36,708 nt of DNA from the IMG/VR virus record IMGVR_UViG_3300028045_000006, positions 1-36,708 of that record; one strand, given 5' to 3'. The translations under genes were made by a program, and so were the position numbers. Of this stretch, positions 1 through 36,708 are shown piece by piece (the stretch's first letter is position 1; the number at the start of each line of letters is the position of its first letter). This DNA comes from a virus. Under the pieces are notes generated by a model. The model was not told where the DNA came from. It did not search any database and worked only from the letters and a program-made list of their open reading frames with translations.

Positions 1-127
1 AATGGAAACACAAGAATTAAAACAATCAATAGAAGAAATGCGTCAAGAGGTCGTGATTAGTGATGTAACGGATAGGATTAGAATAATGTGTCTTGATGCT
101 TTGGATAGTGCGGATGAGTGTTTGGAT
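1..127. repeat. Terminal direct repeat, copy A (identical to 36582..36708); circular-contig overlap
   Basis: Aligned by eye base by base: aatggaaacacaagaatt...gagtgtttggat occurs at both ends, exactly 127 nt. Confidence 0.95.
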
Positions 128-205
128 GTGCCACAATGCAGAAGCTCAATACAGGCAGTGATAGCAACAGTAAGAACTTTTATAAGGAGGAATATTGAAA
201 AATAG
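2..205 (+). CDS. Hypothetical protein (67 aa), spans the circular junction
   Basis: ORF track. Its ATG overlaps the stop of 36395..36583 as TAATG when the ends are joined, so it belongs to the rightward operon. Confidence 0.6.
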   Translation: METQELKQSIEEMRQEVVISDVTDRIRIMCLDALDSADECLDVPQCRSSIQAVIATVRTFIRRNIEK

Positions 206-223
206 GTCAAAATAGTGTACTAT
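195..223 (+). promoter_or_regulatory. Candidate sigma70-like promoter TTGAAA-N17-TACTAT
   Basis: TTGAAA at 195..200, exact 17-nt spacer, TACTAT at 218..223. It lies at the start of one of the few gaps on this arm (206..291). Confidence 0.35.
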
Positions 224-291
224 ACATATGCAACAATTGAGAATCAAGTGTTTATAAGCCCCGCCTAACTCGTTGCTGTATACGGTAATCG

Positions 292-618
292 ATGGTGGGG
301 CTGAACCTTAAACCTATGAACAAAATAGCAGAAGACTACGACTATCTAATGGACGCAATGTCGTGTCATCACGAGACAATGCTTTTATTGCATAAAATAT
401 TCGATGAACCTGATGTAAACGGTTTAGAGCATGGTTGGCTACAATTAGAGGAAGGTTACAGAATTAACGTAGGTGTAGTTATTGAAGGAATAAGAGTGAG
501 TGTACAAAGAATCTTCAAACCAGGAGACAGTCCTAATAAGATAGCGATACAAATAAACGCAGAATTACTTTCTAATATAGATGAGTTGTATGAAGATGAG
601 TCCAAGCCGAATGGCTAA
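292..618 (+). CDS. Hypothetical protein (108 aa; the start is more likely ATG 316)
   Basis: ORF track. The in-frame ATG at 316 is preceded by aaccttaaacct, the leader type seen at other starts. Confidence 0.55.
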   Translation: MVGLNLKPMNKIAEDYDYLMDAMSCHHETMLLLHKIFDEPDVNGLEHGWLQLEEGYRINVGVVIEGIRVSVQRIFKPGDSPNKIAIQINAELLSNIDELYEDESKPNG

Positions 619-970
619 CATAATAGCAAAGAACGAATGGTCTAGTTTGGTTAGAGCTAAGGCAGGTGATGTTTGTGAAATATGTGGGAGAACAGGTAAG
701 TTAGACGCACATCACATCTTCAGAAAACAATCGAACTACATGAAGACACTCCTATCAAATGGCATCGCTCTTTGTTTTAACTGTCATCGTAACGGAATAC
801 ATTCTCCTGATTGGAAAGATCAACGAATAATGAGCGACAAAATACAAGCCTATAAAGGCGAAGAAGAAATGGAACGTCTAAACAGACTAAAACACAATCC
901 TCCTAAGCTTACTTTAGACGAACTTAAAGAAATCAGGAAAGACTACGCTCAAATGTTAAATGAGTATTGA
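581..970 (+). CDS. HNH endonuclease (start ambiguous: 581, 590, 596 or 611)
   Basis: CEICG...DAHHI...NGIALCFNCHRNGIHS is an HNH or His-Me finger motif with two Cys pairs. Confidence 0.75.
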   Translation: MSCMKMSPSRMANIIAKNEWSSLVRAKAGDVCEICGRTGKLDAHHIFRKQSNYMKTLLSNGIALCFNCHRNGIHSPDWKDQRIMSDKIQAYKGEEEMERLNRLKHNPPKLTLDELKEIRKDYAQMLNEY

Positions 971-995
971 CTTTTAGATTTGTATAGCGTATTGT
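967..995 (+). promoter_or_regulatory. Candidate sigma70-like promoter TTGACT-N17-TATTGT, giving a (near-)leaderless RHH transcript
   Basis: TTGACT at 967..972, 17-nt spacer, TATTGT at 990..995. The ATG of the next gene is at 1002, only 6 nt after the -10. Confidence 0.4.
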
Positions 996-1001
996 ACGGA
1001 C

Positions 1002-1238
1002 ATGAAGGATTGCAAGACAACAATTAGAATGTCTAAGGATGAGAAGGAACTTGGTGAGAGGTTGGCCAAAAGGCACAATGTTTCTTTTTCACAGTACGTT
1101 AGAAATTTGACAATGATTGACCGAATGGAGGAAGAGAGTGCAGAACGTATGAGGCTACTTGACGCAATGCCAGAGAAGGAGAGGATGAAGTATTTGAAGG
1201 AGTGTAAGTACGACCCTTTCCCAGATTTATCTATTTAA
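1002..1238 (+). CDS. Ribbon-helix-helix (CopG/Arc/MetJ-like) DNA-binding protein
   Basis: The N-terminal TIRMSKDEKELGERLAKRHNVSFSQYVRNL matches the RHH strand-helix-helix pattern. Confidence 0.5.
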   Translation: MKDCKTTIRMSKDEKELGERLAKRHNVSFSQYVRNLTMIDRMEEESAERMRLLDAMPEKERMKYLKECKYDPFPDLSI

Positions 1239-1247
1239 CCAAAAACC

Positions 1248-1481
1248 ATGAATAAATTAGTTATTAGTTACACGCTTGATGACGAGAAGATAGGACTTAT
1301 CTCAATGGAAGGATCAAAAGAGATGATTGGGGAAACTGAGGCTATGAACGTCCTTTCTGCGGCACTTAGCGAAGAAGCCCGAGCCTTTGTGAGAATGCAT
1401 GATCCTGAGTGTGTTTGTAAAGCACTTATGTTTGCCAAACAAATTGTTGCTTTCTTCGACTATCAGCATCCACCATTATAA
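1248..1481 (+). CDS. Hypothetical protein (77 aa)
   Basis: ORF track; tightly packed in the operon; leader ttaaccaaaaacc. Confidence 0.55.
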   Translation: MNKLVISYTLDDEKIGLISMEGSKEMIGETEAMNVLSAALSEEARAFVRMHDPECVCKALMFAKQIVAFFDYQHPPL

Positions 1482-2327: not shown

Positions 2328-3164
2328 TTATTTTGTTAAGTATTTGCTGTAGTTATGTAAAATTTGCACCATTTCTGAGCGTGTAACAGCTTTTTCGGGT
2401 AAAAACGACCCATCACCGTACCCATGGACTATTTCGTTGTCTTTTGCCCATTGTATTGCTTCTGCGAATGGACTTTCTTCAGTTACATCTTTGAAGATAT
2501 ATTTTATGTCTTTGTGGTCGTATAAGACATAGCAAGAGCCAAGCCATTTAACATCTTCATTCTTTACTAAAAATGTACCGTCATCAAACTTTCCCCAGGT
2601 ACTTCCCCAAGAATTAGATACAATCTTATAAAAAGGTTTATACCCAGTTATACATACAGCGTGTCCTCCAACTCTATCTCCATCATTGCCTCCCCAAATA
2701 CCTTCGTGTTTAGCCTTCTTGAAGTTGGTTTTGGTAACATCCATCGAGGTTACTATTGCAAAGCCCTTAGAGAGCCAGTAATTGACCTCGCTTTTTGGTA
2801 TACGAGCGTACCCGTCTATTTTATAGATTCCATCCGAAGTATGTAGTCCGTTCTTTACAATTGATTTAAGTGCAGTTTGAACGTAGTCTCCCTCTTTTAC
2901 CCTTGTGCCAAACTTCCCTTGCAACTCCCATCCTTTGTCGAATAAAGGATCAAGTTCTTTGTTGTGTTCTGCTTCGTTTGCAACTTGAGCTGAATGGTAT
3001 GCAGAGAAACAGGTACACATTGAAGATTTACCTTGATCTCCTTCCGTTAGTTCTAGCCTTACGCTTTCTGGCAAAGGAGCGTCGTCCTTGCCTAAAATCT
3101 GTTCAGCTATGTAATCACGAGAATCTGGGGCATCTAAAGCCCCAACAGGTCTTTCGTCATTCAT
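2328..3164 (-). CDS. Putative endolysin: papain-like (C1) cysteine peptidase with a C-terminal SLH domain
   Basis: C1 signatures: QGKSSMCTCFSAYH (Cys), GGHAVCITGY (His), SNSWGSTWG (Asn/Trp). The C-terminal FKDVTEESPFAEAIQWAKDNEIVHGYGDGSFLPEKAVTRSEMVQIL matches the SLH consensus F.DV...A..I.W....I..GY.DG.F.P....TR.E. Confidence 0.7.
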   Translation of the reverse strand: MNDERPVGALDAPDSRDYIAEQILGKDDAPLPESVRLELTEGDQGKSSMCTCFSAYHSAQVANEAEHNKELDPLFDKGWELQGKFGTRVKEGDYVQTALKSIVKNGLHTSDGIYKIDGYARIPKSEVNYWLSKGFAIVTSMDVTKTNFKKAKHEGIWGGNDGDRVGGHAVCITGYKPFYKIVSNSWGSTWGKFDDGTFLVKNEDVKWLGSCYVLYDHKDIKYIFKDVTEESPFAEAIQWAKDNEIVHGYGDGSFLPEKAVTRSEMVQILHNYSKYLTK

Positions 3165-3411: not shown

Positions 3412-3560
3412 AGTGTATTGGTTAATTGACTTATTAAGTTATATGTGTTAAGGTTTGAGTATGAGTTGTATCCTACCAATTATTTACATCTTGTTTATTA
3501 TCTTCGCTTTTTCCATTCATTGGGCGTTGGGCTTAATACTTATCGCTCTTTTGTTTGTTC

Positions 3561-5192: not shown

Positions 5193-5202
5193 TATATTTT
5201 GG

Positions 5203-7956
5203 TTACCATTTAATTGAATCTATACTATCTGGAACATATTTACTGTCTTCCACCGACTTGTTGTAAAGGTCGAGGTCTGCTTGTTGTTGTTTTTCTTCGG
5301 GTGTCATAGGCACGTTCTCTTTAATTATTGAATCTGGGTCAATTCCTGCGTCTATTAAGGCTTGTTTCTTTTCTGGATCAATAATAGTTTGAGCATATTC
5401 CTTCCCCATTGTAGACTTGTAAGAATACCTGGCTGCCGTAATCTTAGAGGACAGGAATTCAGACGCTGTATTCAATATTCCTTCAAATTGTTGTTCTGAA
5501 AACTGTAATCCGAGTAGTCTCTTCTGATTCTCTATTTCAGATTCAGAAGGAGCAGCTCCAGTCCCTTTCCATACGGCTGCTATTTCGGTTGCAAGTTGTT
5601 CTAATCCGAATTGGAGATTAACAATCTCTGTATTACCACTTTCCGCACTCCACCAGTTGGACAGTTTATTCAGTTCTTGTATGTCGTCAGGAGTTAAATT
5701 TTGGGTCATCTTTTTAACGTCTGCCAAATGCCCCAAAGCAGTGTTGATAGATAACTTGTTTTTACCGACAGAACTCTCAGTTGAATCCCATTTCTTTCTA
5801 AACTCATACCTAATCTTGTTTGTGTTTTCACTAAAATCAGGATCGACACTCTGTGCTTGCTGTAGTATTTTCTGCCTAGCCTTAGAACCTTCCATTCCTC
5901 TACTTGCCATTAAGTCTGCTAACAGTACGTCACCGTTCAGTAGTTGTTTTATATTGCTTTGGTCGTCAGAGGACAAAGCCGAAAATGCCCCTTGTTCCTT
6001 TGGGGTTAAACCTTCCCAGAAATCTGGGTAAGCTTCTTCTGGGTTAGTGCCACCACTAGGTCTGCCGAACTTCATACCGTCTGTTGACATATCGTGTGTG
6101 CCTATTTTCCCAGATTCAACATAATTAGCATCTTTAACCGTAACCGTACCCCCATCATCACTAACTGAAACAACGAATCCTGCATGACCAACATTGTCTC
6201 CATAAGGTGAAACGAATATGTCTCCAGCCTGTGGGCTGTCTACTGAAATAGACTGTATTGCGTTTATTTTAGAGTCGTAATCATCACCCATCGTTAATCC
6301 AGTATACCTATTCACGAACTGCGCACATTGTATACTTCCAGTCTTACCATTCCATGAGTCTATAGCTGGTTCTCCTGTTGTTGGATCTATTGGCGTTCCA
6401 TCTGGAACAGACAATGCGTCATTTACAGTTCCCCACGCCCCCTGAAAGCCACCACCTTCGCCTTCAGGCGTATACACAACTTTTGGTGGAGTTTTCCCAG
6501 TAGGATCAGTTTGCAACCACCTACCATCGTCCATCTCCTGATATTGGAAATTAGGATTGGCCCTCTTGAGTTCTTTGAATTTCTCTTGGTCAGTATCAGA
6601 TAATGCGCTGTAGAACTCCCATTCTTGTACTTGAGAAGGCTTACCAATATATTTAATGTCCTCTCTTAACTTCTCCGCTTGTGCTAGTTTGTAATCACGT
6701 TCAGCTTCATCCTTGGTTGCTAAGGCTTCAGCCTCCAACTTAATAGCTGATTGCAATGCTAAAGCTTCAGGCATGCTTAAATTTGTGTTCTGAATCATGT
6801 TGCTTAAATCTGCCTCTGTAAGGTTGACTATTGATGCTCCCATAGCTTCCATGTTGGCAACTGTTGTTTCTGTTACCGTATTAACAGTCTCAGCCATCTT
6901 CATTGATTGCTCTGCAAATGCTGTTTCGGCATCTATTTGATCAATTGCTGCTTGTTGGATTTGTCCGTCTGCTTGAGCTATAGCTGCTTTGTATTTAGCA
7001 GCAGAGTCCCAGTCTTCCATCTCCTGCGCACGTTTCAAACTCTTTATTGCTTGGTTTCTTTGTCCTTCAGCTTTTTGTCGTTGTAATTTTATGATTCCTA
7101 ACTTCCTGTCTACGTTCTTTTTGAATACACTTATTACGCCCTTAGCTCCTCCTTTAATTTCTCCTGTTTCTGGATCCATAACGCCTTCACTCACAACACC
7201 TTCTCTTCCTGGAGACAATGCTGCTGTTACAGAAGCTACACTTGACTCTAGAGATTCACCTGCTTGTGATGCTTGTTCTGATTCTAATTTACCAGCCAAT
7301 TCGTTTTGTTTCTCCAAATAAGATAATTCTCCTGCCTGTTTATCTTGTAAATAACCTTGAAAATATTCTTCTAAAGTAGAAAAAGGAGCATCTCCGAATC
7401 CTAGGTCTTCAAATTGAGTAGCCGTTCCAGCCGTATCACCACTTGCCGTAGCTTTCACATAATCATCATAATTTTTATAAGGATACCACGGATTGTCTTC
7501 TGTTCCTGAACCTAGTCCAACTACATTCCCTTGATCATCATAAGCGAATCCTGCTTGTCCTTGGTAAGGAGTGTCTTTAACAGGAAGTCCTTGATCACCA
7601 GCTAACTCTTTTCCTTTAGGAGAATCTGGACTATAGAGCTTACCTGTAGACGGATCTTTTATTTGCCATCCTCCTCCTGGTTTCTCTTGAAAGACTCCAG
7701 TACCTTGTGATTGTGGTTGATCAGGAGCTACCTCGGGAACCTCTGGCGTGGCTTGTTGACTCTTCCACTCTTGGACTCCTTTGGCGTAATCCTTAGAACT
7801 ACCATAGTCAGTTTTCTTTGGTGGTGTTACAGCAGGCTTCACGCTTTCTGTGTCAATTTTGATTGGTTCCACCTTCGGAATGTCTTTTTTTTGAGCAGCT
7901 AAAGCGGCCTTGTATTCAGCCCTAGATTTAAACTGATCTCTGTATAGTTTTGCCAT
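5203..7956 (-). CDS. Large virion protein (917 aa) with an internal CHAP peptidoglycan-hydrolase domain
   Basis: The spacing of SIQCAQFVNRY (Cys codon 6325..6327) and NVGHAGFVVSV (His codon 6184..6186) is typical of CHAP. Long coiled or low-complexity flanks resemble ejection proteins. Confidence 0.6.
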   Translation of the reverse strand: MAKLYRDQFKSRAEYKAALAAQKKDIPKVEPIKIDTESVKPAVTPPKKTDYGSSKDYAKGVQEWKSQQATPEVPEVAPDQPQSQGTGVFQEKPGGGWQIKDPSTGKLYSPDSPKGKELAGDQGLPVKDTPYQGQAGFAYDDQGNVVGLGSGTEDNPWYPYKNYDDYVKATASGDTAGTATQFEDLGFGDAPFSTLEEYFQGYLQDKQAGELSYLEKQNELAGKLESEQASQAGESLESSVASVTAALSPGREGVVSEGVMDPETGEIKGGAKGVISVFKKNVDRKLGIIKLQRQKAEGQRNQAIKSLKRAQEMEDWDSAAKYKAAIAQADGQIQQAAIDQIDAETAFAEQSMKMAETVNTVTETTVANMEAMGASIVNLTEADLSNMIQNTNLSMPEALALQSAIKLEAEALATKDEAERDYKLAQAEKLREDIKYIGKPSQVQEWEFYSALSDTDQEKFKELKRANPNFQYQEMDDGRWLQTDPTGKTPPKVVYTPEGEGGGFQGAWGTVNDALSVPDGTPIDPTTGEPAIDSWNGKTGSIQCAQFVNRYTGLTMGDDYDSKINAIQSISVDSPQAGDIFVSPYGDNVGHAGFVVSVSDDGGTVTVKDANYVESGKIGTHDMSTDGMKFGRPSGGTNPEEAYPDFWEGLTPKEQGAFSALSSDDQSNIKQLLNGDVLLADLMASRGMEGSKARQKILQQAQSVDPDFSENTNKIRYEFRKKWDSTESSVGKNKLSINTALGHLADVKKMTQNLTPDDIQELNKLSNWWSAESGNTEIVNLQFGLEQLATEIAAVWKGTGAAPSESEIENQKRLLGLQFSEQQFEGILNTASEFLSSKITAARYSYKSTMGKEYAQTIIDPEKKQALIDAGIDPDSIIKENVPMTPEEKQQQADLDLYNKSVEDSKYVPDSIDSIKW

Positions 7957-7974
7957 ATATTTTTAGTTAATTGT

Positions 7975-10011: not shown

Positions 10012-10021
10012 TGTATATTGG

Positions 10022-11596
10022 TTATTGTTTAATCATTTTGCGTCTCCTGATTGGAGCTTTAACTTGTGACTCTAACGACACCCAATTCACAGCGTGTGGG
10101 AGCTTGTCACTACAAGTTATATGTAAAATTACTCTTTGGAAATTTCTTATAAAAGGTCTACATCCGTCGAAACTCTCTACTAGATTACTGTAGTCAATGT
10201 CACCTCCCCATCCAGAAGTCCCCCAAGCTGCTGTTCCCCATCCATCTTCTCCTAGTTTAGACCTTTGAGCTGTCCATAAAAACCTTAGTTTGTCATTAAC
10301 AGGCTTCCCCGTCACATCATATATGTCGAATCTTACACTAATTTCTGTGCTAGGACTCAAGTAACCTTGAACATAACATCCTTTTAAGAATTGTCTCGTG
10401 AACAAATCCCCTAGTTTTAGTTCTTGCCTAAACTCTGTTCCTATAAGTTGCCCGTCATCATCAAATCCTTGGAATAACTCGTAAACTTTAGTCGAAGTAC
10501 TACTACCTCCATAAACAACGCCATCGTCACTCATAAATCTGTTAATAGTCCATCCGCTAAACTCTACGAAACTCTTGTGGTCTACGTTATATGCAATCAC
10601 GTAATTGTTAGTCGAGGAATCCTTTGCACAAGTAATCAAAATAATCCTTCTTCTAGCATCGTAAACCATATCAGCATTAGAAAGATCAAGTCCATCAAAG
10701 AACTCTGCTCCTAGTAAAATACTCACATTAGCCTCTTGATCGCTTTGAGGAAGATCCATCGAACCTATTTGTACTAATTGCCATAATCCTGATTCGTTGA
10801 CATAGAAAATACCTTCTGTTGTACTCTCTGACGCTCTACTACCTCCAGAGTCTACTCTATACATTGTAGTTATATCTACCTTGCTAATCGTACCACTAGA
10901 GTCTATTTGATCTATTCTAAATGCCCATTTACCGTCATCAGCTAAAGCGAATATATCTGGACCGAAAGCGTGAATTGACCTGACTGTTTGACCATTTCTG
11001 TAAGAAACAATCCCTGCACCTGTAGCTGTAGTATCTACTGTCCAACCGTCAAAAGGTGGATCGCTTCCATCGTCTACTTCCGAATAGTATATTGAATCAT
11101 TTACCGCACAATACAACCTGTTTCCAACCACTCTTAAATAAGTAGCTACAGCAGGACTTGCCACTACATGAGCTTCTGTCAAGGTGTCGTCTATTCTCCA
11201 AATGCCGTTTATGCCGTTAGAAACAAAGAAGTAACTACCATATCTCGCTCCAAAGAATCCAAGATTTGCAGTAAAGTCAGTTTTAATCGGTGTAATTGTG
11301 TCTGTCGATTTAGTATAAGCCGAAACTGTAGTCGCATAACCAAAGATGTAAATATCATCTGTCCATTTCTCTAACATAGTCACAGGATCAGTACCTGCTA
11401 CCTCGAATATCTTCGACAAACCTCCTCTCTTTTCGAGTCTTCCTTCTGCTGTTACTAGGTAATTCTTAATAACCTGAGCGAACTCTGGATTTAATAATTG
11501 AGGTAAGTCTCTAATATTCTCTCCTTTAGAACCCATTAGAGTAGTCGCACTCACTGGCGAACCCTTATAACCTTTAACATTTATTGGCGTGTACAT
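10022..11596 (-). CDS. Tail structural protein (524 aa), nozzle or tubular-protein-B-like by position
   Basis: Gene order only: it follows a ~200-aa adaptor-sized gene, as in short-tailed phages. Confidence 0.3.
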   Translation of the reverse strand: MYTPINVKGYKGSPVSATTLMGSKGENIRDLPQLLNPEFAQVIKNYLVTAEGRLEKRGGLSKIFEVAGTDPVTMLEKWTDDIYIFGYATTVSAYTKSTDTITPIKTDFTANLGFFGARYGSYFFVSNGINGIWRIDDTLTEAHVVASPAVATYLRVVGNRLYCAVNDSIYYSEVDDGSDPPFDGWTVDTTATGAGIVSYRNGQTVRSIHAFGPDIFALADDGKWAFRIDQIDSSGTISKVDITTMYRVDSGGSRASESTTEGIFYVNESGLWQLVQIGSMDLPQSDQEANVSILLGAEFFDGLDLSNADMVYDARRRIILITCAKDSSTNNYVIAYNVDHKSFVEFSGWTINRFMSDDGVVYGGSSTSTKVYELFQGFDDDGQLIGTEFRQELKLGDLFTRQFLKGCYVQGYLSPSTEISVRFDIYDVTGKPVNDKLRFLWTAQRSKLGEDGWGTAAWGTSGWGGDIDYSNLVESFDGCRPFIRNFQRVILHITCSDKLPHAVNWVSLESQVKAPIRRRKMIKQ

Positions 11597-15625: not shown

Positions 15626-15637
15626 AATATAATTAGG

Positions 15638-15946: not shown

Positions 15947-15964
15947 TTTAAATTGGTTAAATTA

Positions 15965-21152: not shown

Positions 21153-21161
21153 AGTAGAAAT

Positions 21162-24004: not shown

Positions 24005-24067
24005 TAAAACAGGTTAGAGGAACCACGTTTAGTAGTTTGTGAATACATTATACACTATATATTGTGT

Positions 24068-24483: not shown

Positions 24484-25785
24484 CTATTTCTTAAGGATTA
24501 AGTCTTTAGCTGCTTTAGCGTATTCTTTGTATTCTTTGGCTGGAATTCCTATCTCGTGCTTTCTTATACCTGCTTCGTGGTCAGCAAAACCCATAGCTTT
24601 GTTCTCATAGTCACTGAACGGTGTTGAGTCTTTGACAGAGATTGTAGTCAATGCGTACCTAACTGCATCCATTGCATGATCGAAGCCTGGTTCTGGTACA
24701 TTTAACACCTTCCCATTCTTGTCTGTTAGCCACAAGTAGTTCCTATACTCTTTAATCACGTTAATTGACCTCTTAGTCATGAATATCCTTTGGTCTTGTA
24801 CTAACTGTATTCCTTGATTAACTGAGTCTCTACCTTTCTTACATCCGATTATGTTAGCTCCATAGGCTCTTATCTCATCAATAGACTTAGGCTCTGCTGA
24901 GTCAGCTACTGTTAGAGTGTTGTTCTCGTCGATCAATAGAATGTCAGCTATCTGCTTATTACTCAATCCTTTCCTAAATGTTATCTCGTCTATGATGTAA
25001 GCTCCGTTCCACTTGTAGATGTCTACTATAGATGTTGGGTCGTTACTGTATCCGAAATCCATACCTTTCCTAATCAACTTAGCTTCATCTGGTATCTTAT
25101 CAAGTATCTTCCAATCCTTATATATCTTACCTTCTACCTCACCCAGCATTCCTAGTCCATACACTTGCCACCATCCTTTCCTGTTCCTACGCTGTTCAAT
25201 TGATTCCACAATCTTCTCGTCTAATGCTTCGTTGTCCTTATAAGTAAGCGTACATTCTTCTACATCATCTCTATCATCTCTAACATCAGAGTAATACCAA
25301 AACTCATTAGTCGGATTCCAATCTAAGTACACAAACTCCTTAGTCCTTACCTCAAGCTGCTCAAATGCGTCAAAAGGCACGTTGTTAGCCTCGTTGATGA
25401 ACAAACGATCTCTACGTGCTCCTCTGAGCTTATCGGGGCTGTCAGCTGAAAAGAATTCGATTCTACTTCCTGTCTCAAATGTGTACGTGTGATTGGTCTT
25501 GTCCCATAGTTTGTCTTTGTAATAGCCTTGCTTCTGCATTATGTTTAAGAAATCTCTCTCAGCTCCTCTACGGAGATGTGGGAAAGACTCTGATACAACA
25601 CTTGTTAAAGTTATAGCCTTATCACTCTGTGCTCTAGCTATTAAATAAATAAGAATAGAGATTGTTTTAGAAGCTGAAGTACCACCAGGCACTGCTCTAA
25701 TCCTTTGCTCCATCTTCATTATCTTGTCCGTCGCTGTTGTTATTACAAACATGAGGTAGTATTGGTGATGGTAACTTCTCTCCAT
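24484..25785 (-). CDS. terL: Terminase large subunit (Terminase_3 / PBSX-like); true start probably at internal Met 25752, 25719 or 25713
   Basis: Walker A VPGGTSASKT and Walker B DRLFINEA. Nuclease motifs GMDFGYSNDPTSIV, DSAEPKSIDEIR and HAMDAVRYAL. Confidence 0.9.
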   Translation of the reverse strand: MERSYHHQYYLMFVITTATDKIMKMEQRIRAVPGGTSASKTISILIYLIARAQSDKAITLTSVVSESFPHLRRGAERDFLNIMQKQGYYKDKLWDKTNHTYTFETGSRIEFFSADSPDKLRGARRDRLFINEANNVPFDAFEQLEVRTKEFVYLDWNPTNEFWYYSDVRDDRDDVEECTLTYKDNEALDEKIVESIEQRRNRKGWWQVYGLGMLGEVEGKIYKDWKILDKIPDEAKLIRKGMDFGYSNDPTSIVDIYKWNGAYIIDEITFRKGLSNKQIADILLIDENNTLTVADSAEPKSIDEIRAYGANIIGCKKGRDSVNQGIQLVQDQRIFMTKRSINVIKEYRNYLWLTDKNGKVLNVPEPGFDHAMDAVRYALTTISVKDSTPFSDYENKAMGFADHEAGIRKHEIGIPAKEYKEYAKAAKDLILKK

Positions 25786-26045: not shown

Positions 26046-26074
26046 ATTATACCACAGATGTTAGTTAGTTACAA
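26046..26074 (-). promoter_or_regulatory. Candidate sigma70-like promoter with extended -10 (TTGTAA-N17-TATAAT, preceded by TGg) in front of terS
   Basis: Read on the minus strand: TTGTAA at 26074..26069, 17-nt spacer, TG at 26054..26053, TATAAT at 26051..26046. The terS ATG is at 26020. Confidence 0.45.
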
Positions 26075-26209: not shown

Positions 26210-26223
26210 AGTTATTTGTTTAG

Positions 26224-26481
26224 TTACAAATCCTTAAACATCTTCGCCACTCTTCCTAAGTGTGAACTCATGTCCTTTACAAACTCTTTCAACGTAAGCA
26301 TTTGTAGTGAGGCTACGTGGTTGTTCTTAGTGAATGTGAAGAAGAATGTTCTATAAGCACTTTTAGGAATCTCTTCTATGTAAGCAAGGCTATCTCCTCT
26401 TTGTATAGTACACTCTATATTCTCTTTCTCTAAGAAAGGTCTCATAGCTTCTATCACTCTTCGTTTAGTGCATCTCATCAT
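26224..26481 (-). CDS. Hypothetical protein (85 aa)
   Basis: ORF track; preceded by TAACCAAATAGA and ending in gatttgtaa. Confidence 0.55.
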   Translation of the reverse strand: MMRCTKRRVIEAMRPFLEKENIECTIQRGDSLAYIEEIPKSAYRTFFFTFTKNNHVASLQMLTLKEFVKDMSSHLGRVAKMFKDL

Positions 26482-26489
26482 CTATTTGG

Positions 26490-26618
26490 TTAAACTGGTA
26501 TAGGTGCATCATCTGGCACAATCGCATATGGCATCTCCGCTGGTTTCGGCTCCTTCTCGTCAACAATCTGACAAGGCATTTCTGCTGGATGACACTCCTC
26601 CAACTTCTTCTTCCCCAT
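26490..26618 (-). CDS. Small ORF (42 aa), Pro/Glu-rich
   Basis: Hand translation: MGKKKLEECHPAEMPCQIVDEKEPKPAEMPYAIVPDDAPIPV. Preceded by CTAACCAAATAGAAC. Confidence 0.4.
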   Translation of the reverse strand: MGKKKLEECHPAEMPCQIVDEKEPKPAEMPYAIVPDDAPIPV

Positions 26619-26821: not shown

Positions 26822-26829
26822 CTATTTGG

Positions 26830-27198
26830 TTAATCTAATGCTGGTACATCAGGCTCTTCCATCGTGCTTTTCATTATCTCCTGACTAACTACCTCTCTAT
26901 CTATTCTTACTACCTTCATCGAATCGAAGTCTTCCACCACGATAACGTTACATTTCATCGCCTTCGTCATCTTCTCAATCTCTGAATGAGTGAAAGCATC
27001 TCTCAGAACTGCAAGCGTGTCTCCTTCCTTAATATCAATCTTTCTCTTCTTCTCTAACTCTTCTACCTTCTCTGCTAGGTCATTCAACATCCTACCTTGC
27101 ATTACAGCCATCACTTTTAGTCCAGACCACCACCAAGGCAGCTTCATTCCTTCTTTGTAATAATCTTCTAATCTTTTCATTATGCTTTTGTTAAACAA
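26830..27198 (-). CDS. Hypothetical protein (122 aa)
   Basis: ORF track. Confidence 0.55.
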   Translation of the reverse strand: MFNKSIMKRLEDYYKEGMKLPWWWSGLKVMAVMQGRMLNDLAEKVEELEKKRKIDIKEGDTLAVLRDAFTHSEIEKMTKAMKCNVIVVEDFDSMKVVRIDREVVSQEIMKSTMEEPDVPALD

Positions 27199-27596: not shown

Positions 27597-27843
27597 TTAA
27601 ATCAGTTAATTGTTCTTCTATTTCTAAACACTGCAGTACAAGACTGTCTACTGGTTCTCTCGCTCCACACTCCCTACACACTAAGTCTATTATCCACTCA
27701 GTTTGCCCTGGGTCTATGATTTGATTGTCCCTTGAGAACTTAGACTGGTCTTTGTTCTTACACTCATCACAATAGTGAGTGATCTCTTTATTTCTTACCT
27801 TTAGGCGTATCCTTCTCCCCTTCGCCTTCTTTGATTGGATCAT
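27553..27843 (-). CDS. Zinc-ribbon protein (96 aa)
   Basis: Two CxxC pairs: CDEC...CREC. Confidence 0.5.
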   Translation of the reverse strand: MIQSKKAKGRRIRLKVRNKEITHYCDECKNKDQSKFSRDNQIIDPGQTEWIIDLVCRECGAREPVDSLVLQCLEIEEQLTDLNESKDNSKANAKEE

Positions 27844-27961: not shown

Positions 27962-27971
27962 AGTTTTATTG

Positions 27972-28163
27972 TTAAGAATTTAGTGGAATTTGTTTAGTTT
28001 GCTTGTTTGTCACGAATCCGTTTGTCGCTCCGTCCTGCTTCATCGCTTTGTATATAAGTTCGTCTAACGCTGTTTGCGCCTCCTGTGCTTCCTGTACTGT
28101 GAGTGGCTTGGTCTTTTTTAGGCTCGACTCCCCACCCACTATTAAAGTGAATACTGTTGTCAT
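27972..28163 (-). CDS. Hypothetical protein (63 aa)
   Basis: ORF track. Preferred over the overlapping alternative frame 27994..28227 because it starts 12 nt after the upstream stop. Confidence 0.4.
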   Translation of the reverse strand: MTTVFTLIVGGESSLKKTKPLTVQEAQEAQTALDELIYKAMKQDGATNGFVTNKQTKQIPLNS

Positions 28164-28426: not shown

Positions 28427-28447
28427 TTTAGTTTAGTTAGAGCTGTC

Positions 28448-28614: not shown

Positions 28615-28643
28615 TTGACACTATATAGCACATTTGCTATACT
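28615..28643 (+). promoter_or_regulatory. Candidate early rightward promoter TTGACA-N17-TATACT
   Basis: Consensus -35 at 28615..28620, 17-nt spacer, TATACT at 28638..28643. The first rightward ATG is at 28674. The -35 overlaps a tandem AAGTATTGA repeat (28599..28607 and 28610..28618, 11-bp period). Confidence 0.6.
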
Positions 28644-28673
28644 AAGTGTGTAGTATTCATTAACCCTCAAAAT

Positions 28674-28903: not shown

Positions 28904-28997
28904 AGATTCTTTAATTCTCCAAGTCCTCCTAATGTCTGCTGTTATATTCGTAGGAGGATTCGTAGCTGTTATATTTCTATTAACCTTCCCACTATGA
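28896..28997 (+). CDS. Micro-ORF (33 aa), single hydrophobic helix
   Basis: MLKDSLILQVLLMSAVIFVGGFVAVIFLLTFPL; ATGA overlap with the next ORF. Confidence 0.35.
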   Translation: MLKDSLILQVLLMSAVIFVGGFVAVIFLLTFPL

Positions 28998-29127: not shown

Positions 29128-29403
29128 ATGACAACCCCAATAGAGCTATTAAAGGAATCCATAGAAATTACAAAAAAAGCCAACAAGTTTGAAGAGAGTT
29201 TGGTTGACTCTGGAAACTTACATTCCATTCGGGAACTTGACCTTTCCGACAGGACCGACTGGCTTCTAAGTAGTCTTAATATTTGTAGCGTGGAGAAATT
29301 GTTGTTAATGAAAGATTATGAATTGGCGAACCTGCCAGGAATAGGAAGGAAGACCCTTGAAGAGATTGAAAGCGCCCTTCATCACCACAAATTATTTAAC
29401 TAA
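29128..29403 (+). CDS. RNA polymerase alpha-subunit C-terminal-domain (alpha-CTD)-like helix-hairpin-helix protein
   Basis: SIRELDLSDRTDWLLSSLNICSVEKLLLMKDYELANLPGIGRKTLEEIESAL follows the alpha-CTD pattern I.EL.LS.R..N.L....I.....L.....EL....N.G.KSL.EI...L. Confidence 0.6.
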   Translation: MTTPIELLKESIEITKKANKFEESLVDSGNLHSIRELDLSDRTDWLLSSLNICSVEKLLLMKDYELANLPGIGRKTLEEIESALHHHKLFN

Positions 29404-29648: not shown

Positions 29649-29804
29649 ATGTCTAAAACAACAAAAGAACAAATCATGGCCGCAGTTGTGAACGACTATT
29701 TCAACGACCTCGAGTTTATTGAGGCATTGAATAATTTAACCTACGGTAGAAAGGTTCAGTTGAAAGCTAACCTTAAAACCAACTATGAACCAAGGATGGA
29801 TTAA
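29649..29804 (+). CDS. Small ORF (51 aa)
   Basis: Hand translation: MSKTTKEQIMAAVVNDYFNDLEFIEALNNLTYGRKVQLKANLKTNYEPRMD. It fills the gap before the replication gene. Confidence 0.4.
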   Translation: MSKTTKEQIMAAVVNDYFNDLEFIEALNNLTYGRKVQLKANLKTNYEPRMD

Positions 29805-30541: not shown

Positions 30542-31048
30542 ATGCAAAAATATGTAATGACCACGACAGATAAAACCAAGTTTATTTTGAGTGAAGAAGA
30601 GAAGGAGGCTGTATTCAAAGCGGTTCTCAATGGGAAACAAAAACAAATAGTAGTGCAAGGTCAGATGATTCCTATAAACATCGCACCGACAATAATAACC
30701 ATGGAACGTTGGTGGTCGCAAGAAAACGAAAGACTAGCACTCACACACCACCGGCTTTGTAAGAACTGCTTAAGTATCATGCACATACAGGACAAGTGTC
30801 CTTGTTGGAAAACAATGGGTAAAGGAGAACTTAAAAGTGGAATAGAAGCGCCACTACTACCACAAGGAGTTGCAGACACGATCCAACAACTAGCAGATAA
30901 AAAAGCCTTTCCTCAGCTAGATAGGTTCGACCGGGCAAAGCTTGAAGACGAAGAAAAACAGGCCAGGTTGGCGAATGCCAACAGAGCCATCTCTACCCAA
31001 GAAGGAGCTTACATTGATCCAGAAACAGGAGAAACATTTTATTCTTAA
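30542..31048 (+). CDS. Hypothetical protein (168 aa from ATG 30542; the longest ORF starts at 30503)
   Basis: ORF track. The 30503 start would overlap the organiser gene by 29 nt, whereas 30542 follows its stop. Contains CKNC...CPC. Confidence 0.5.
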   Translation: MQKYVMTTTDKTKFILSEEEKEAVFKAVLNGKQKQIVVQGQMIPINIAPTIITMERWWSQENERLALTHHRLCKNCLSIMHIQDKCPCWKTMGKGELKSGIEAPLLPQGVADTIQQLADKKAFPQLDRFDRAKLEDEEKQARLANANRAISTQEGAYIDPETGETFYS

Positions 31049-31060
31049 CCCAAACCCCCT

Positions 31061-31498
31061 ATGAAATTCACCTACGATTGCGAATGTTGCGGACACAAAC
31101 TGGTCGCATACACTCACAAGCTAAACAAGATGATGGTATCGTCGCTAGAACAGCTTGTAGAGTTTTACGATCAAAACCACAGGAGGGCTAATCTACAAAA
31201 AGATTTACACCTCACGAAGAACCAATACGCTAACTTCCAAAAGCTACAATACTTTGAACTTGTACATAGAGATTCAAACGGTTGGCTACCTACTCAAAAA
31301 GGATCAGACTTTATAGCTGGCAAGGTGTGGGTTCCAAACACAGTAGGAACTCTCGGCAAGAAGATTCTAGAACCAGACCATCCAGCTTGGGAAACTCACC
31401 AGAGAAGAATCGACTGGGTAAAGGTTGGAGACTATATTCCAACAACCTACAAACAGAGAGAAGAATACCAAGATGAGAAATCTTTAACTTTATTTTAA
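31061..31498 (+). CDS. Hypothetical zinc-ribbon plus putative winged-helix protein (145 aa)
   Basis: N-terminal CECCGH, then QKLQYFELVHRDSNGWLPTQKGSDFIAGK, which resembles a wHTH recognition region. Confidence 0.4.
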   Translation: MKFTYDCECCGHKLVAYTHKLNKMMVSSLEQLVEFYDQNHRRANLQKDLHLTKNQYANFQKLQYFELVHRDSNGWLPTQKGSDFIAGKVWVPNTVGTLGKKILEPDHPAWETHQRRIDWVKVGDYIPTTYKQREEYQDEKSLTLF

Positions 31499-31508
31499 CC
31501 TAAACACT

Positions 31509-32697: not shown

Positions 32698-32859
32698 ATG
32701 ACAATAGTAGGATTCGCAAGATACAAAAGCAAAGAACAAAGAGCAAGACTTCACCAGACCGTTAAAGACAAGAAGTGGAAGAACACCAATCAGATGATGT
32801 TAGAAATGGCTGATGTGCCAGAACTTGTACCAAAGAAGCCACTCAAAACTATCAATTAA
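32698..32859 (+). CDS. Small basic ORF (53 aa)
   Basis: Hand translation: MTIVGFARYKSKEQRARLHQTVKDKKWKNTNQMMLEMADVPELVPKKPLKTIN. Confidence 0.4.
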   Translation: MTIVGFARYKSKEQRARLHQTVKDKKWKNTNQMMLEMADVPELVPKKPLKTIN

Positions 32860-32870
32860 CCCATATCAAA

Positions 32871-33041
32871 ATGGAAGACCTGTTTGAAGACTTTCTCAAA
32901 GACAAACACGCCAAAGACTATCACGGAACAGATGATGACATGTATGAAGATTTTGAAGCGTGGCTTATGAACTTAGACGTTCAGGAGCTACTAGACTACG
33001 GAAACGAACTTGCAAAGAAATTAACTAACCCAACTAAGTAA
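32871..33041 (+). CDS. Small acidic ORF (56 aa)
   Basis: Hand translation: MEDLFEDFLKDKHAKDYHGTDDDMYEDFEAWLMNLDVQELLDYGNELAKKLTNPTK. TAATG overlap with erf. Confidence 0.45.
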   Translation: MEDLFEDFLKDKHAKDYHGTDDDMYEDFEAWLMNLDVQELLDYGNELAKKLTNPTK

Positions 33042-33692: not shown

Positions 33693-33999
33693 CGCCAATG
33701 GAATAATTAAACTTGGAAACGAGCTACACCGATTAAGAATTGGATTCATAACAGCTAAGGCAAGACTAATAGACGCAGAGAATCTGTCACGCAGACTAGC
33801 ACTAAGCGATCCAGACCTAAAGGTTTCACTCATAAGAGATGTAATCAAAGACGGATGCGCTGAAGAACAGAAGATTCACGACCTACTCCTAGAAGAAATC
33901 CGAGACTTAAAAGAGCAAATGGAAGTGTTAGTAGAAGTAAATAACTCGCTGAAGGCTTCACACCGAATCCTTGAGCTTGAAATAAAGAACCAACTTTAA
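33631..33999 (+). CDS. Hypothetical coiled-coil protein (122 aa)
   Basis: ORF track; start uncertain (62-nt overlap with the previous ORF). Confidence 0.45.
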   Translation: MQTNISDSFHPTKAIQTLKNNANGIIKLGNELHRLRIGFITAKARLIDAENLSRRLALSDPDLKVSLIRDVIKDGCAEEQKIHDLLLEEIRDLKEQMEVLVEVNNSLKASHRILELEIKNQL

Positions 34000-34009
34000 C
34001 CAAAAAAAC

Positions 34010-34174: not shown

Positions 34175-34192
34175 TCCTTAACCCAAACAACT

Positions 34193-34397: not shown

Positions 34398-34412
34398 ATA
34401 ACAAAAACCCTC

Positions 34413-35153
34413 ATGAAATATCTAAGAAAAGAACTCGCAATCGTAATGATTGGCGCAATAGTCGGGATGTTCCTATACATCACGTTTGAACCAGTTTCAA
34501 AAGCAGACGCACTGCAAGCAATCTACAACACAACCCTGGAAGAATTTAACTATGTGAACGGAATCTACAAAGAAAAGGAAGCTGAGATACAAACATACGA
34601 AGCTCGCTTAGAATCACTCAAAAATGAGCTAGAATCGCTGTCTAAACTACTTGCAAACTTAAAAGCAGACGTAGACGCAGAAAAAGACGAACTCTTTTCT
34701 AAGGGCGAAATAACGCCAAAAACAACAGAGCTTGAAAGGTGGCAGTATGTAGCTGATTTAAGAGAACCTTTGGCTAAGTATTGGAAAGGTACTGTTTTGG
34801 AAGGAAAGGAAGACGATCTTCTGTTGTGGTGCAAAGCTAGTACAGTTGCCAGAGTTTGCGTGAAGGTTATTGCAGCTCAGACGCAGATTGAAACTTCGTT
34901 TGGCACTACTGGAGTTGGTAAGACGCACAAGAATCTAACTGGTATCAGAGATTCAGGAAAGTGGAGAACTTACGAACAGTATCATTACAGCTTAAAGGAT
35001 AGTGTTGAACTGTTTATAGCTGGAAACTATCAAGATTACTTCACAATACATGGTTGGGAAAAAGGGCTTAGGTTATATTTAAACAGATGGGGGACACTAC
35101 ATGTAATTGATATAAAACATATATGCGAAAATGTATTAACAAAACAACCATGA
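34413..35153 (+). CDS. Signal-anchored coiled-coil protein with a C-terminal GH73-like (glucosaminidase/FlgJ-type) domain
   Basis: N-terminal TM segment LAIVMIGAIVGMFLYITF. IAAQTQIETSFGTTG...KNLTGIRD...WRTYEQYHYSLKDSVELF parallels the GH73 blocks AQA.lESgwG, nNlFGik and f..Y.s...S..dy. The candidate catalytic Glu codon is at 34890..34892. Confidence 0.55.
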   Translation: MKYLRKELAIVMIGAIVGMFLYITFEPVSKADALQAIYNTTLEEFNYVNGIYKEKEAEIQTYEARLESLKNELESLSKLLANLKADVDAEKDELFSKGEITPKTTELERWQYVADLREPLAKYWKGTVLEGKEDDLLLWCKASTVARVCVKVIAAQTQIETSFGTTGVGKTHKNLTGIRDSGKWRTYEQYHYSLKDSVELFIAGNYQDYFTIHGWEKGLRLYLNRWGTLHVIDIKHICENVLTKQP

Positions 35154-35509
35154 GAGAATTAAAATTCAAAACTTGGGACAGAAAAGAAAAAGAAATGTAC
35201 CCAGCAGAAAGATTGGCTGACTGGACGCTGATAATAGAAGAAGAAAGGTACGACATCCTTCAATTCACAGGTCTACTAGATAAAAACGGCAAGGAAATAT
35301 ATGAAGGCGATGTAGTGAAAACTGTAATCAGAACCATCGATGGGCATGACCACAAGGAAAGCGGAGAGGTGAAGTGGAATTATAACGACCTGGCGTACGA
35401 CATAGTGAGGTCTAGAGAAAAAGGTGATTTCCAACACCTGTTCAAGTCATCAGGCCGCACTGTTGAAGTCATAGGTAACATATACGAGAATCCTGACCTG
35501 CTTAAATGA
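35150..35509 (+). CDS. YopX-family protein
   Basis: MRELKFKTWD...LQFTGLLDKNGKEIYEGDVV...VIGNIYENPDLL is the classic YopX pattern. ATGA overlap with the upstream gene. Confidence 0.75.
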   Translation: MRELKFKTWDRKEKEMYPAERLADWTLIIEEERYDILQFTGLLDKNGKEIYEGDVVKTVIRTIDGHDHKESGEVKWNYNDLAYDIVRSREKGDFQHLFKSSGRTVEVIGNIYENPDLLK

Positions 35510-35661
35510 AACCAACCAAATTCTTAACAATTTTTATTCTATGTCTATTCGTAATTTTATTCTTAATAGGTTTTCTAAAGTGGATAGTGATGGTGTTCGT
35601 AATTCCAGCCGTAGAATTCCTGTTCGCAGGATTAGTTCTAATAGCAAGTGGAAGCCTGTAG
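35506..35661 (+). CDS. Small membrane protein (51 aa, 2 TM)
   Basis: MKPTKFLTIFILCLFVILFLIGFLKWIVMVFVIPAVEFLFAGLVLIASGSL; ATGA overlap with yopX. Confidence 0.45.
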   Translation: MKPTKFLTIFILCLFVILFLIGFLKWIVMVFVIPAVEFLFAGLVLIASGSL

Positions 35662-35761
35662 TGGAGCTTCAAGTTTGCAATGACATCTTGGAAGGCACGC
35701 AGAAAATGAAAGTCATTCCGTATGAGAAGTCTTATAACGAATCTCGTAGCCATCAATCACT

Positions 35762-35917
35762 ATGAGAAGACCAGCACCAAAATACAAACAGATGAAAAAA
35801 GCAAAATCGTACAAAGATTATTTAAAAGAAGACCAAGAGAAAGGTAATCCAGCAGCAATAGAAGCTAAAATACCTAACAAGTATTATAAAAATAACGTAA
35901 GTAAATACGACCTATGA
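35762..35917 (+). CDS. Small basic ORF (51 aa)
   Basis: MRRPAPKYKQMKKAKSYKDYLKEDQEKGNPAAIEAKIPNKYYKNNVSKYDL. Confidence 0.4.
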   Translation: MRRPAPKYKQMKKAKSYKDYLKEDQEKGNPAAIEAKIPNKYYKNNVSKYDL

Positions 35918-36024
35918 AAATCACAATCGAATACAAACCAGTAAGCAACAAAGCAAGGGAAGAGTTTTTAGAAGACATAAGATTAGTAACAGACGATTAC
36001 GAAGCTGAAATGGAAATAGAATAA
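35914..36024 (+). CDS. Micro-ORF (36 aa)
   Basis: MKITIEYKPVSNKAREEFLEDIRLVTDDYEAEMEIE; ATGA overlap. Confidence 0.35.
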   Translation: MKITIEYKPVSNKAREEFLEDIRLVTDDYEAEMEIE

Positions 36025-36148
36025 TTTAACAACAACCCCATGACTAAAAACAAGGGAGAGAAAAAGAGCTTCCTGCATAATATATTTAATCAAAGAAGCC
36101 CTAAAGAATCATCTTAAGTAAACCCACTATCAATTAACAATAAATAAT

Positions 36149-36358
36149 ATGAAAGATAAAGGAGAAACTGAGTGCGAAGGTTGTGAAAACGCTATTGCCA
36201 CTTATAAATGTGTTGATTGCGGGAGAAAGCTTTGCGAAGATTGTGCTGAAGGTGGATATGCAGGATGCGATTGTGGTTTGCCACAGTTTGAGCTTATTAA
36301 CTCCCAACACCCCATGAATACAGAAAGGAAAGAAATTATAGAGGAAAGAGTTTCTTAA
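36149..36358 (+). CDS. Cys-rich B-box-like zinc-finger protein (69 aa)
   Basis: CEGCENAIATYKCVDCGRKLCEDCAEGGYAGCDCG has at least four CxxC or CxC pairs with B-box-like spacing. Confidence 0.5.
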   Translation: MKDKGETECEGCENAIATYKCVDCGRKLCEDCAEGGYAGCDCGLPQFELINSQHPMNTERKEIIEERVS

Positions 36359-36394
36359 TAACCTAAAAGAACTTAACTTATAACCTATGAAAAG

Positions 36395-36583
36395 ATGAAA
36401 ACAGAAAAAACAGGTTACGAAGTAAAACTAATAGTGTCGCTTATATTTAATTGTAAAAGCCTACAGGAGGCTGAAGGAGAACAAGAGAATCTTAAAAATG
36501 CACTCAAGAACCAACTTGACGAGCATTACCCATTTAGAGTTGAGAAAGTGGAAGTCCAACCACCCGAACTTAATCAAGAATAA
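36395..36583 (+). CDS. Hypothetical protein (62 aa)
   Basis: ORF track; TAATG overlap with the junction-spanning ORF. Confidence 0.5.
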   Translation: MKTEKTGYEVKLIVSLIFNCKSLQEAEGEQENLKNALKNQLDEHYPFRVEKVEVQPPELNQE

Positions 36584-36708
36584 TGGAAACACAAGAATTA
36601 AAACAATCAATAGAAGAAATGCGTCAAGAGGTCGTGATTAGTGATGTAACGGATAGGATTAGAATAATGTGTCTTGATGCTTTGGATAGTGCGGATGAGT
36701 GTTTGGAT
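36582..36708. repeat. Terminal direct repeat, copy B (identical to 1..127)
   Basis: Same 127-nt string as 1..127. It contains the 5' part of the ORF annotated at 2..205. Confidence 0.95.

Follow-up and report, generated by a model that had tools for sequence, protein, structure and literature searches.

In the virus record IMGVR_UViG_3300028045_000006 of IMG/VR (the whole stretch of 36,708 nucleotides (nt) that was analysed, referred to below as the window), open reading frames (ORFs) lack a Shine-Dalgarno (SD) sequence and begin behind G-free leaders, which in ca. 60% of the genes carry a short box, TTAAC followed by C, T or A. The reading preferred here, with a probability of ca. 0.72, is that leader and box form an SD-independent initiation signal matched to the ribosomes of the host, and that this host does not belong to the Bacteroidia but most likely to an SD-less lineage of the Patescibacteria (Candidate Phyla Radiation, CPR) with the standard genetic code. 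The box is a translation-initiation signal: it is strand-specific, stands at a fixed distance from ATG whatever the position of the gene in its operon, coincides with G depletion, low structure and A at position -3, and tracks the host.

Genes of the window are distributed over a minus-strand arm (ca. 1976-28599) with packaging, structural and lysis genes, and a plus-strand arm (28600 to the end, plus 1-1975) with early, replication and recombination genes. When their starts were aligned (57 to 63 starts, box counts being based on 63 refined starts), G accounted for 0-12% at most positions from -18 to -2, with a coding strand that is not itself G-poor, and a T-T-A-A-C-C profile appeared at -14 to -9. 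The G-poor leaders and the absence of a purine-rich SD had been described in a first-pass annotation of the sequence from ten example starts, all of which were found again where it had placed them, and both observations were borne out with a single exception, an SD-like 4-mer at one of the 63 refined starts (32598). Only 2 of the 692 sense-strand occurrences of SD-like words fall within the intervals 5-22 nt upstream of starts, for ca. 19 expected from the 2.8% of the sequence that these intervals represent; such words are ca. 10-fold depleted ahead of starts and are actively avoided there. The window therefore falls outside the SD-led class, defined by GGAGG-like words located 5-10 nt upstream and complementary to CCUCC. 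Start regions (-30 to +20) also fold less stably than internal sense segments (-2.7 versus -6.2 kcal/mol, p≈4e-16), and A occupies position -3 in 53% of the window starts. Counts of AUG near starts are small, with 6 ATG versus 4 GAT upstream and 12 ATG versus 23 GAT downstream.

The recurrent element had initially been written as (T)AACC(A/T)A; an upstream motif does recur, with a core that is TTAAC plus C, T or A and not strictly TAACCAA. The latter is present in 16 copies in the window against 7.0±2.2 in dinucleotide shuffles, and TAAC occurs 10-17 nt upstream of 38 of the 63 starts (ca. 60%) against 5.5±2.2 when the bases of each leader were permuted among themselves (2000 trials, maximum 13), a result by which a simple composition effect was rejected. 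TAAC is the most enriched leader 4-mer, the top three being TAAC, AACC and TTAA. Enrichment relative to shuffled controls is accompanied by a clear positional preference, distances from TAAC to the start being 11 nt in 2 cases, 12 in 4, 13 in 17, 14 in 8, 15 in 4, 16 in 1 and 17 in 2. A count made without any annotation found ATG at +12, +13 and +14 after a sense-strand TAAC 12, 21 and 17 times, compared to ca. 4±2 at other distances, and the same count on the antisense strand gave no peak; the signal therefore does not depend on the choice of starts. As in known non-SD ribosome binding sites (RBS), the motif lies at a short and consistent distance ahead of both first and internal operon genes.

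Because the box begins with TAA, its relation to upstream stop codons bears on a very unlikely alternative, namely that it is specific to a phage lineage, depends on a phage-encoded reader or on the coupling of termination to reinitiation, and is independent of host gene signals. In agreement with such coupling, the TAA of 12 of the 38 boxes terminates an upstream ORF that has 40 codons or more. This is the case for TAACCAA at 1236..1242 (plus strand, 12 nt before ATG 1248), at 5199..5205 (minus, 13 nt before ATG 5192, the stop belonging to the gene of a 917-amino-acid (aa) CHAP protein), at 10018..10024 (minus, 13 nt before ATG 10011) and at 33997..34003 (plus, 13 nt before ATG 34010), for TAACCTA at 15634..15640 (minus, 15 nt before ATG 15625) and 31496..31502 (plus, 13 nt before ATG 31509), and for TAACCCA at 31046..31052 (plus, 15 nt before ATG 31061). 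Several repeats of the control region (TAACTAACTAA) also provide stops in three frames, and a related contig of 56% GC from a non-CPR bin (L008, see below) has some CTAACC leaders. However, these 12 are the only boxes that coincide with a genuine stop, and genes without an adjacent upstream ORF have the box no less often than the others, since it is found in 13 of the 17 genes that have an upstream gap of more than 40 nt or come first in their arm and in 22 of the 40 tightly packed genes; a stop-codon artefact was rejected on these grounds. The initial claim that the box is more than such an artefact, based on TAACCAA at 16764..16770 (minus, 14 nt before ATG 16756), was thus upheld, this copy not being a stop codon. 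Nor are the same sequences at 15953..15959 (minus, 13 nt before ATG 15946) and at 3418..3424 (minus, 13 nt before ATG 3411), the latter following a 149-nt gap. Other boxes behind gaps are TAACAAA at 19923..19929 (minus, 14 nt before ATG 19915; 70-nt gap) and 34399..34405 (plus, 14 nt before ATG 34413; 139-nt gap), and TAACAAT at 36135..36141 (plus, 14 nt before ATG 36149; 231-nt gap). The first gene after the best promoter also has a box (TTAACCCTCAAAATATG at 28660-28676), with TAACCCT at 28661..28667 (plus) located 13 nt before ATG 28674 in a place where no upstream translation is possible. In addition, at the commonest distance (13) box and start are in different reading frames, the box is found ahead of housekeeping genes in cellular contigs, and no shared factor is evident, since the phages that share the box differ in most of their early genes. 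Under the preferred reading of a host-matched signal, the box TAA of abutting genes would simply double as the upstream stop, economising sequence.

Where the start of the longest ORF has no box, an internal ATG often has one together with a G-free leader, and the box likely marks the true internal starts. TAACAAA at 18192..18198 (minus) lies 14 nt before the internal ATG 18184, the likely true start of an ORF whose longest form begins at TTG 18256; TAACACA at 24395..24401 (minus) lies 13 nt before the internal ATG 24388, also a likely true start; and TAACAAA at 27187..27193 (minus) and 35137..35143 (plus) lies 13 nt before the internal ATGs 27180 and 35150. The longest-ORF starts are probably wrong for 16775-18256, 24068-24439 and 26830-27198 on the minus strand and 35123-35509 on the plus strand, to which these four ATGs belong, and for 24484-25785 (minus, 25752 or 25713 instead), 30503-31048 (plus, 30542) and 31864-32637 (plus, 31933), the internal ATGs being mostly boxed and preceded by G-free leaders.

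The same leaders were found in diverged phages. Relatives of the lysin (56-73% identity; L023, L026/L028) and of the portal protein (47-50%; L013-L015) belong to contigs with G-free leaders and no SD; in L023, L026, L013 and L015 pooled, TAAC stands at distances 12-15 in 38 of 88 genes, with A at -3 in 70% and T at -1 in 57%. A terminase relative with 67% identity (L075/L076) has the box in 17 of 26 genes as called in the database, and at orthologous genes the box is kept and the remaining leader sequence drifts. Two contigs assigned to two Saccharibacteria bins (L005 and L006), with a large terminase (TerL) of 62-63% identity, carry strong GGAGG sites ahead of 19 of 31 genes and 17 of 29 genes, respectively. 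Since SD is used in these two and the box in other TerL relatives, start signals in the terminase clade track the host and not the phage lineage. A further TerL relative (60% identity) is carried by L008, a 161-kb contig of 56% GC from a Dongia bin, whose structural genes have no SD and display C/A-rich leaders with CTAACC or CAACCAC (e.g. actaaccgcgccctATG, cactaaccccagaagcATG). L008 may come from another SD-poor host, as a prophage or a mis-binned phage, or else it may indicate that the motif partly travels with the phage lineage.

Initially, the box had been attributed either to an unusual host or to a phage-specific signal, and SD-independent initiation of the Bacteroidota kind had been noted together with conflicting host signals. 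The evidence favours the unusual host: diverged phages and CPR-like housekeeping genes share the box, and TerL relatives from SD-using hosts use SD. For the CPR the evidence is indirect. Among the TerL relatives in genome collections, 7 of 12 occur in Saccharibacteria, Nanosynbacter or Patescibacteria bins, so that the two features expected of a CPR phage, relatives tied to CPR genomes and matching start signals in cells, are found in these bins and in the box-bearing loci described below. SD-less CPR lineages without CCUCC have been documented and parts of the CPR are SD-scarce (PMC10783764, PMC9297842), and in a Roizmanbacteria (CPR) genome Prodigal assigned a 'TAA' RBS to 353 of 946 ORFs (PMC6509639). 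SLH proteins, of which the window lysin is an example, are also common in some CPR (PMC13059738). Those SLH-rich lineages read UGA as glycine. The window has no sense TGA, eight of its genes end in TGA, five of these in ATGA start/stop overlaps, and code 25 gives no better coding density; a code-25 host (SR1/Gracilibacteria) is therefore unlikely. With an SD-less CPR host using the standard code, the apparent conflict of host signals would resolve.

A host from the Bacteroidota or the wider Fibrobacteres-Chlorobi-Bacteroidetes (FCB) group, in which the box would be a local flavour of the A-rich non-SD motif of Bacteroidia, was considered quite unlikely. What stood of the early suggestion is that initiation is SD-independent with a layout like that of Bacteroidota and that other signals do not fit. 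The closest terminases of cultured phages come from Flavobacterium phages (46% identity), 90% of FCB genomes are in group B of GeneMarkS-2 (PMC6028130), and the leader layout is nearly superimposable on that of Flavobacterium phage FpV9, with T-T and A-A at ca. -14 to -11, A at -3 and no G. In FpV9, T-T is at -16/-15 and an A run at -14 to -10, giving TTAAAAA at -16 to -10, TAAA peaks at distances 14-15 and A-3 reaches 76%. However, C represents 31-37% at -11 to -9 in the window versus 5-7% in FpV9, which has 60-69% A there, and in the window leaders A peaks only at -12/-11 and does not form the -14 to -10 run of group B. The Bacteroidia -7 motif TAnnTTTG occurs 7 times in the intergenic DNA of the window for 5.3 expected, in agreement with the first-pass statement that promoters are not of this type, and 18 times for 3.9 expected in FpV9. 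No enrichment of this motif was seen in the intergenic DNA of the relatives of the window either, and Bacteroidia are disfavoured because it is not enriched in the window and strongly so in FpV9. Closer terminase relatives (60-69%) come mainly from Patescibacteria bins, the best promoters resemble sigma70 sites and have an extended -10, and the ribosomal protein uS12 of the box-bearing cellular contigs differs from that of F. johnsoniae. A lysin with an SLH domain, which is atypical for Bacteroidota, was also counted against an FCB host. Cyanobacteria had been named too as candidates for SD-independent hosts, a suggestion that was not supported: Prochlorococcus phage P-SSP7 and Anabaena phage A-4L, like SAR11 phage HTVC103P, have SD-type G peaks and no TAAC peak, and a cyanobacterial or SAR11-type host signature was rejected.

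A cellular counterpart of the signal was found in Joint Genome Institute (JGI) metagenomes by scanning for TAACYAA-N5-7-ATG fused to the uS12 N-terminus MPTI(N/Q)QL, which returned 35 loci. Eight of them belong to a single organism of ca. 33% GC with contigs of up to 86 kb and no SD, in which the box precedes rpmB and rpsL (TTAACTAATTAACTAAT…ATG), rpsG (TTAATAACCAACTTATG), fusA (TTTAACTTAAATATAGATATG) and others, amounting to 30-46% of the genes per locus. The box-bearing cellular contigs have no SD and carry the CPR-type insertion in uS12, an internal region that is found in almost all CPR (PMC9297842), and the uS12 of the box-rich organism resembles the Firmicutes type more than that of F. 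johnsoniae. Once the selected rpsL was removed and duplicates were collapsed, loci with the uS12 insertion had TAAC at 10-17 nt in 14 of 80 genes versus 4.5±2.1 in shuffles (TTAA[CT]: 18 versus 6.2±2.4), and loci without the insertion, retrieved with the same pattern, in 3 of 90 genes versus 4.4. Gene orders at these loci are also of note. Three lineages with the insertion (L043, L064 and L068, 35-59% GC) have the order rpoB, an ssb-like gene (MRSVNKVIL[IV]GNLTR…), rpoC, rpsL and rpsG; bacteria do not usually have a gene for a single-stranded-DNA-binding protein between rpoB and rpoC. In one organism (L044/L065/L072/L073), rpsL-rpsG-fusA is followed by a transfer-messenger RNA (tmRNA) gene and then infC-rpmI-rplT, in place of tuf and the S10 operon, and downstream of rplT is a 226-aa ORF that resembles a homing-endonuclease-type insert. 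The IF3 ORF of this organism has no box at its annotated length; its start may be a codon other than ATG, as is frequent for infC.

Several points weigh against a CPR host with a host-matched box. Cellular enrichment comes mostly from one organism, the other insertion loci having weaker or variant boxes (TTAATC), and this organism, whose taxonomy is itself deduced, has 33% GC versus 40% for the phage and may be neither the host nor closely related to it. The binning of phage contigs into metagenome-assembled genomes is weak evidence of host, and the terminase relatives were all on contigs of ca. 30-40 kb, among which no integrated copy with host flanks was found. G-poor TerL relatives in Patescibacteria bins (L001, L002, L003 and L010) have A/T-rich leaders without a TAAC peak. 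Finally, an effect of the box on translation is predicted from sequence. No rRNA genes were found in the CPR-like loci, and two other routes to the host were uninformative: a word-indexed search with the SLH domain alone gave no match, and HMMER similarity to this domain led chiefly to multi-repeat SLH proteins, with retrieved contigs (L033-L039) that are SD-using, Firmicutes-like and not from the host.

With regard to mechanism, the box is centred ca. 11-12 nt upstream of the start codon, and the phage would have matched this signal to the ribosomes of its host. Removal of G would keep the start region single-stranded and allow direct loading of the 30S subunit, and the A-A of the box at -12/-11 together with A-3 may, by analogy, correspond to the stimulatory upstream adenines of SD-less Bacteroidia. 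In F. johnsoniae, A at -3, -6, -12 and -13 enhances initiation, and replacing -14 to -11 by UCCC reduces expression by 90% (PMC6847099). Located where the SD helix would otherwise sit, in the region of the mRNA exit channel and the platform, the box would most likely serve as a contact or an enhancer, and its reader may be bS1, the platform or another ribosomal component and not the canonical CCUCC tail. For the -12/-13 adenines of Bacteroidia, structures have so far not revealed the reader, and bS1 was suggested (PMC13000457). A more far-reaching and doubtful proposal is that an SD-less lineage, probably one of the CPR/Patescibacteria, uses UUAAC(C/U) as a dedicated, sequence-specific element for recruiting ribosomes, which is read by a rewritten 16S tail or by a lineage-specific surface of a ribosomal protein and which phages of the lineage copy gene by gene.

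Reading by the 16S tail in the strict sense, i.e. an alternative SD in which the host 16S 3' end has lost CCUCC and carries …GGUUAA… pairing with UUAACC, seems unlikely. It would account for a signal that is sequence-specific and more than A-richness, for the 3' end of the box lying 6-8 nt from ATG and for a 60% prevalence typical of SD-using genomes, and CPR 16S 3' termini are indeed very diverse and often without CCUCC (PMC10783764 supplement, PMC9297842). Yet GGUUAA occurs in none of the SD-less CPR termini listed in the PMC10783764 supplement, the conserved core of only 4-5 A/U-rich nt would form a weak helix, and positions 5-7 of the box vary among C, T and A. In the same supplement, the 16S 3' end of Wolfebacteria is given as GATTAATTAAATATT, the UUAAUUAA stretch of which is self-complementary. 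A tail of this kind could possibly pair with the UUAAUUAA/UUAAUC-type leaders of L043 and L044, in an alternative SD-like interaction.

A signal acting on DNA or RNA, either a -10-like element of leaderless transcripts or a site of endoribonuclease processing, is extremely improbable. The promoters of leaderless genes in GeneMarkS-2 group C also lie ca. 10-13 nt upstream (PMC6028130), but the box does not end in the T that is invariant in a -10 hexamer (A makes up 61% and T 16% at position -8), stands ahead of almost all genes in a co-oriented structural block of 25 kb, and comes with ca. 25 nt of G depletion and A-3, which are translation-type features. The group C -10 box was rejected given the composition at -8 and the presence of the box on internal operon genes.

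Compared to known systems, the window signal is closest to the Bacteroidia type, yet is a distinct sequence variant. Shared with the Kozak-like initiation of Bacteroidia group B are the absence of SD, G-poor unstructured starts, A-3 and adenines at ca. -12 (PMC6847099, PMC6028130), as well as a motif at ca. -9 to -15 before first and internal operon genes; the window differs by the C after A-A, by an exact TAAC on 60% of genes, by the lack of TAnnTTTG enrichment and by a host that is probably not of the Bacteroidota. The 'TAA' RBS of CPR (Roizmanbacteria, PMC6509639) also corresponds to a TAA-containing motif upstream of many genes, with SD/anti-SD loss in parts of the CPR; the CPR reports, however, are limited to a 3-nt label of a gene finder or to SD absence, and the CPR host of the window phage is deduced. 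A canonical SD has the same position, spacing and prevalence, whereas the box is pyrimidine/A-rich, G-free and cannot pair with CCUCC. The epsilon enhancer of T7 gene 10 (UUAACUUUA) is a phage leader element that boosts initiation and is reported to be active without SD when extended; it is located at ca. -25, upstream of a normal SD in an SD-using host, and pairing with nt 458-466 of E. coli 16S rRNA (helix 17) has been proposed for it. Only the UUAAC core is common to both, the window box occurring without SD and at the SD position. Non-SD start motifs are thus already known (group B of GeneMarkS-2, 'TAA' of Prodigal), of which the TTAAC(C/T/A) box is a new sequence variant. The searchable literature held no description of this box, its spacing, its prevalence or its sharing between marine phages and CPR-like bacteria.

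The CPR make up a large share of bacterial diversity and have reduced ribosomes, often with no anti-SD. A compact box of defined sequence and spacing on ca. 60% of genes offers a concrete, mutable handle on SD-less and possibly CPR initiation; if UUAAC were indeed read as a dedicated element, it would represent a second, independently evolved 'Shine-Dalgarno-like' code. In practice, the box improves the calling of start codons in these phages, and the type of start signal may serve as a host-prediction feature for uncultured phages because it tracks the host even among phages with related terminases.

The remaining boxes are spread over both arms. On the minus strand, those located 13 nt upstream of their start are TAACAAA at 2332..2338 (ATG 2325), TAACTAA at 7963..7969 (ATG 7956 of the CHAP tail protein) and 28433..28439 (ATG 28426, the first gene of this arm), and TAACAAT at 12257..12263 (ATG 12250) and 27968..27974 (ATG 27961). 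At 12 nt are TAACTTA at 14249..14255 (ATG 14243), TAACCTG at 24010..24016 (ATG 24004 of a 594-aa gene at the portal position) and TAACTGA at 27602..27608 (ATG 27596), while TAACGTA at 21161..21167 stands 15 nt before ATG 21152 of the major-capsid-like gene. On the plus strand, TAACCTT occurs at 28981..28987 (13 nt before ATG 28994) and 29768..29774 (17 nt before ATG 29785), TAACTAA at 29397..29403 (13 nt before ATG 29410), TAACCCA at 32857..32863 (14 nt before ATG 32871), 33026..33032 (15 nt before ATG 33041 of the ERF recombinase gene) and 34179..34185 (14 nt before ATG 34193), TAACAAT at 35525..35531 (16 nt before ATG 35541) and TAACCTA at 36381..36387 (14 nt before ATG 36395).

Promoters had been described as canonical sigma70 (TTGACA-N17-TATAAT), which holds only in part. 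No perfect TTGACA-N16-18-TATAAT was found anywhere in the window and sigma70-like matches are not enriched overall (23 versus 26 expected), but loose TTGnnn-N16-18-TAnnnT pairs are ca. 2-fold more frequent than expected in intergenic DNA (27 versus 13.4) and two sites with an extended -10 are well placed. The best of these (28615..28643, plus strand) consists of TTGACA and, after 17 nt, TATACT with TG upstream of it; it is part of the divergent control region and stands ca. 30 nt before the first gene of the plus arm. The second (26046..26074, minus strand; TTGTAA, 17 nt, TATAAT, with an upstream TG) is ahead of a small ORF at 26020 and the terminase gene. The latter site falls within a repeat-rich region of the minus strand (26040-26660), with three copies of GATTTGTAACTAAC(TAAC) at ca. 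26654-26630, 26232-26215 and 26077-26060 and three copies of TTAACCAAATAGATG at the heads of small ORFs. The TAACTAACTAA of these repeats has a stop codon in all three frames, and the last GATTTGTAA copy is also the -35 of the promoter-like site at 26074-26046. Three boxes are part of the repeats on this strand: TAACTAA at 26220..26226 within GATTTGTAACTAA, 17 nt before ATG 26209, and TAACCAA at 26486..26492 and 26826..26832, each in a TTAACCAAATAGATG unit, before ATG 26481/26478 and ATG 26821, respectively. The region may be a regulatory or packaging-proximal one upstream of the terminase genes.

The window corresponds to a complete, circularly assembled phage genome of ca. 36,581 bp, its ends sharing an assembler overlap of 127 nt (1-127 = 36582-36708). 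A search for tRNA genes in it found none. Predicted products include the large terminase, the CHAP-domain tail protein, lectin-like fibres, the lysin, the ERF recombinase and a Mom-family protein. The lysin (2328..3164, minus) combines a papain-like C1 peptidase domain with one SLH cell-wall-binding domain, the latter, already reported at first pass, being confirmed, and its leader has the box variant TAATCAA. The large terminase gene used as query for relatives (24484..25785, minus) had no exact record in databases because gene callers take internal starts, the internal ATGs yielding products of 422, 411 or 409 aa. A nucleotide search of the structural block against cultured phages gave no match, and searches with the lysin and capsid proteins gave no informative cultured relatives. 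Contigs near-identical or related to it originate from marine settings, namely low-oxygen water and sediments (e.g. Saanich Inlet at 200 m and marine sediment metagenomes). The Mom-family protein is encoded at 31864-32637 (plus; PF25680, E=1e-68), while the early region of a near-identical relative (L017) encodes instead two N6/N4 DNA methyltransferases, an HNH gene and a Sigma70_r4-domain protein; early and DNA-modification modules are thus mosaic between phages that are 99% identical in their lysin.

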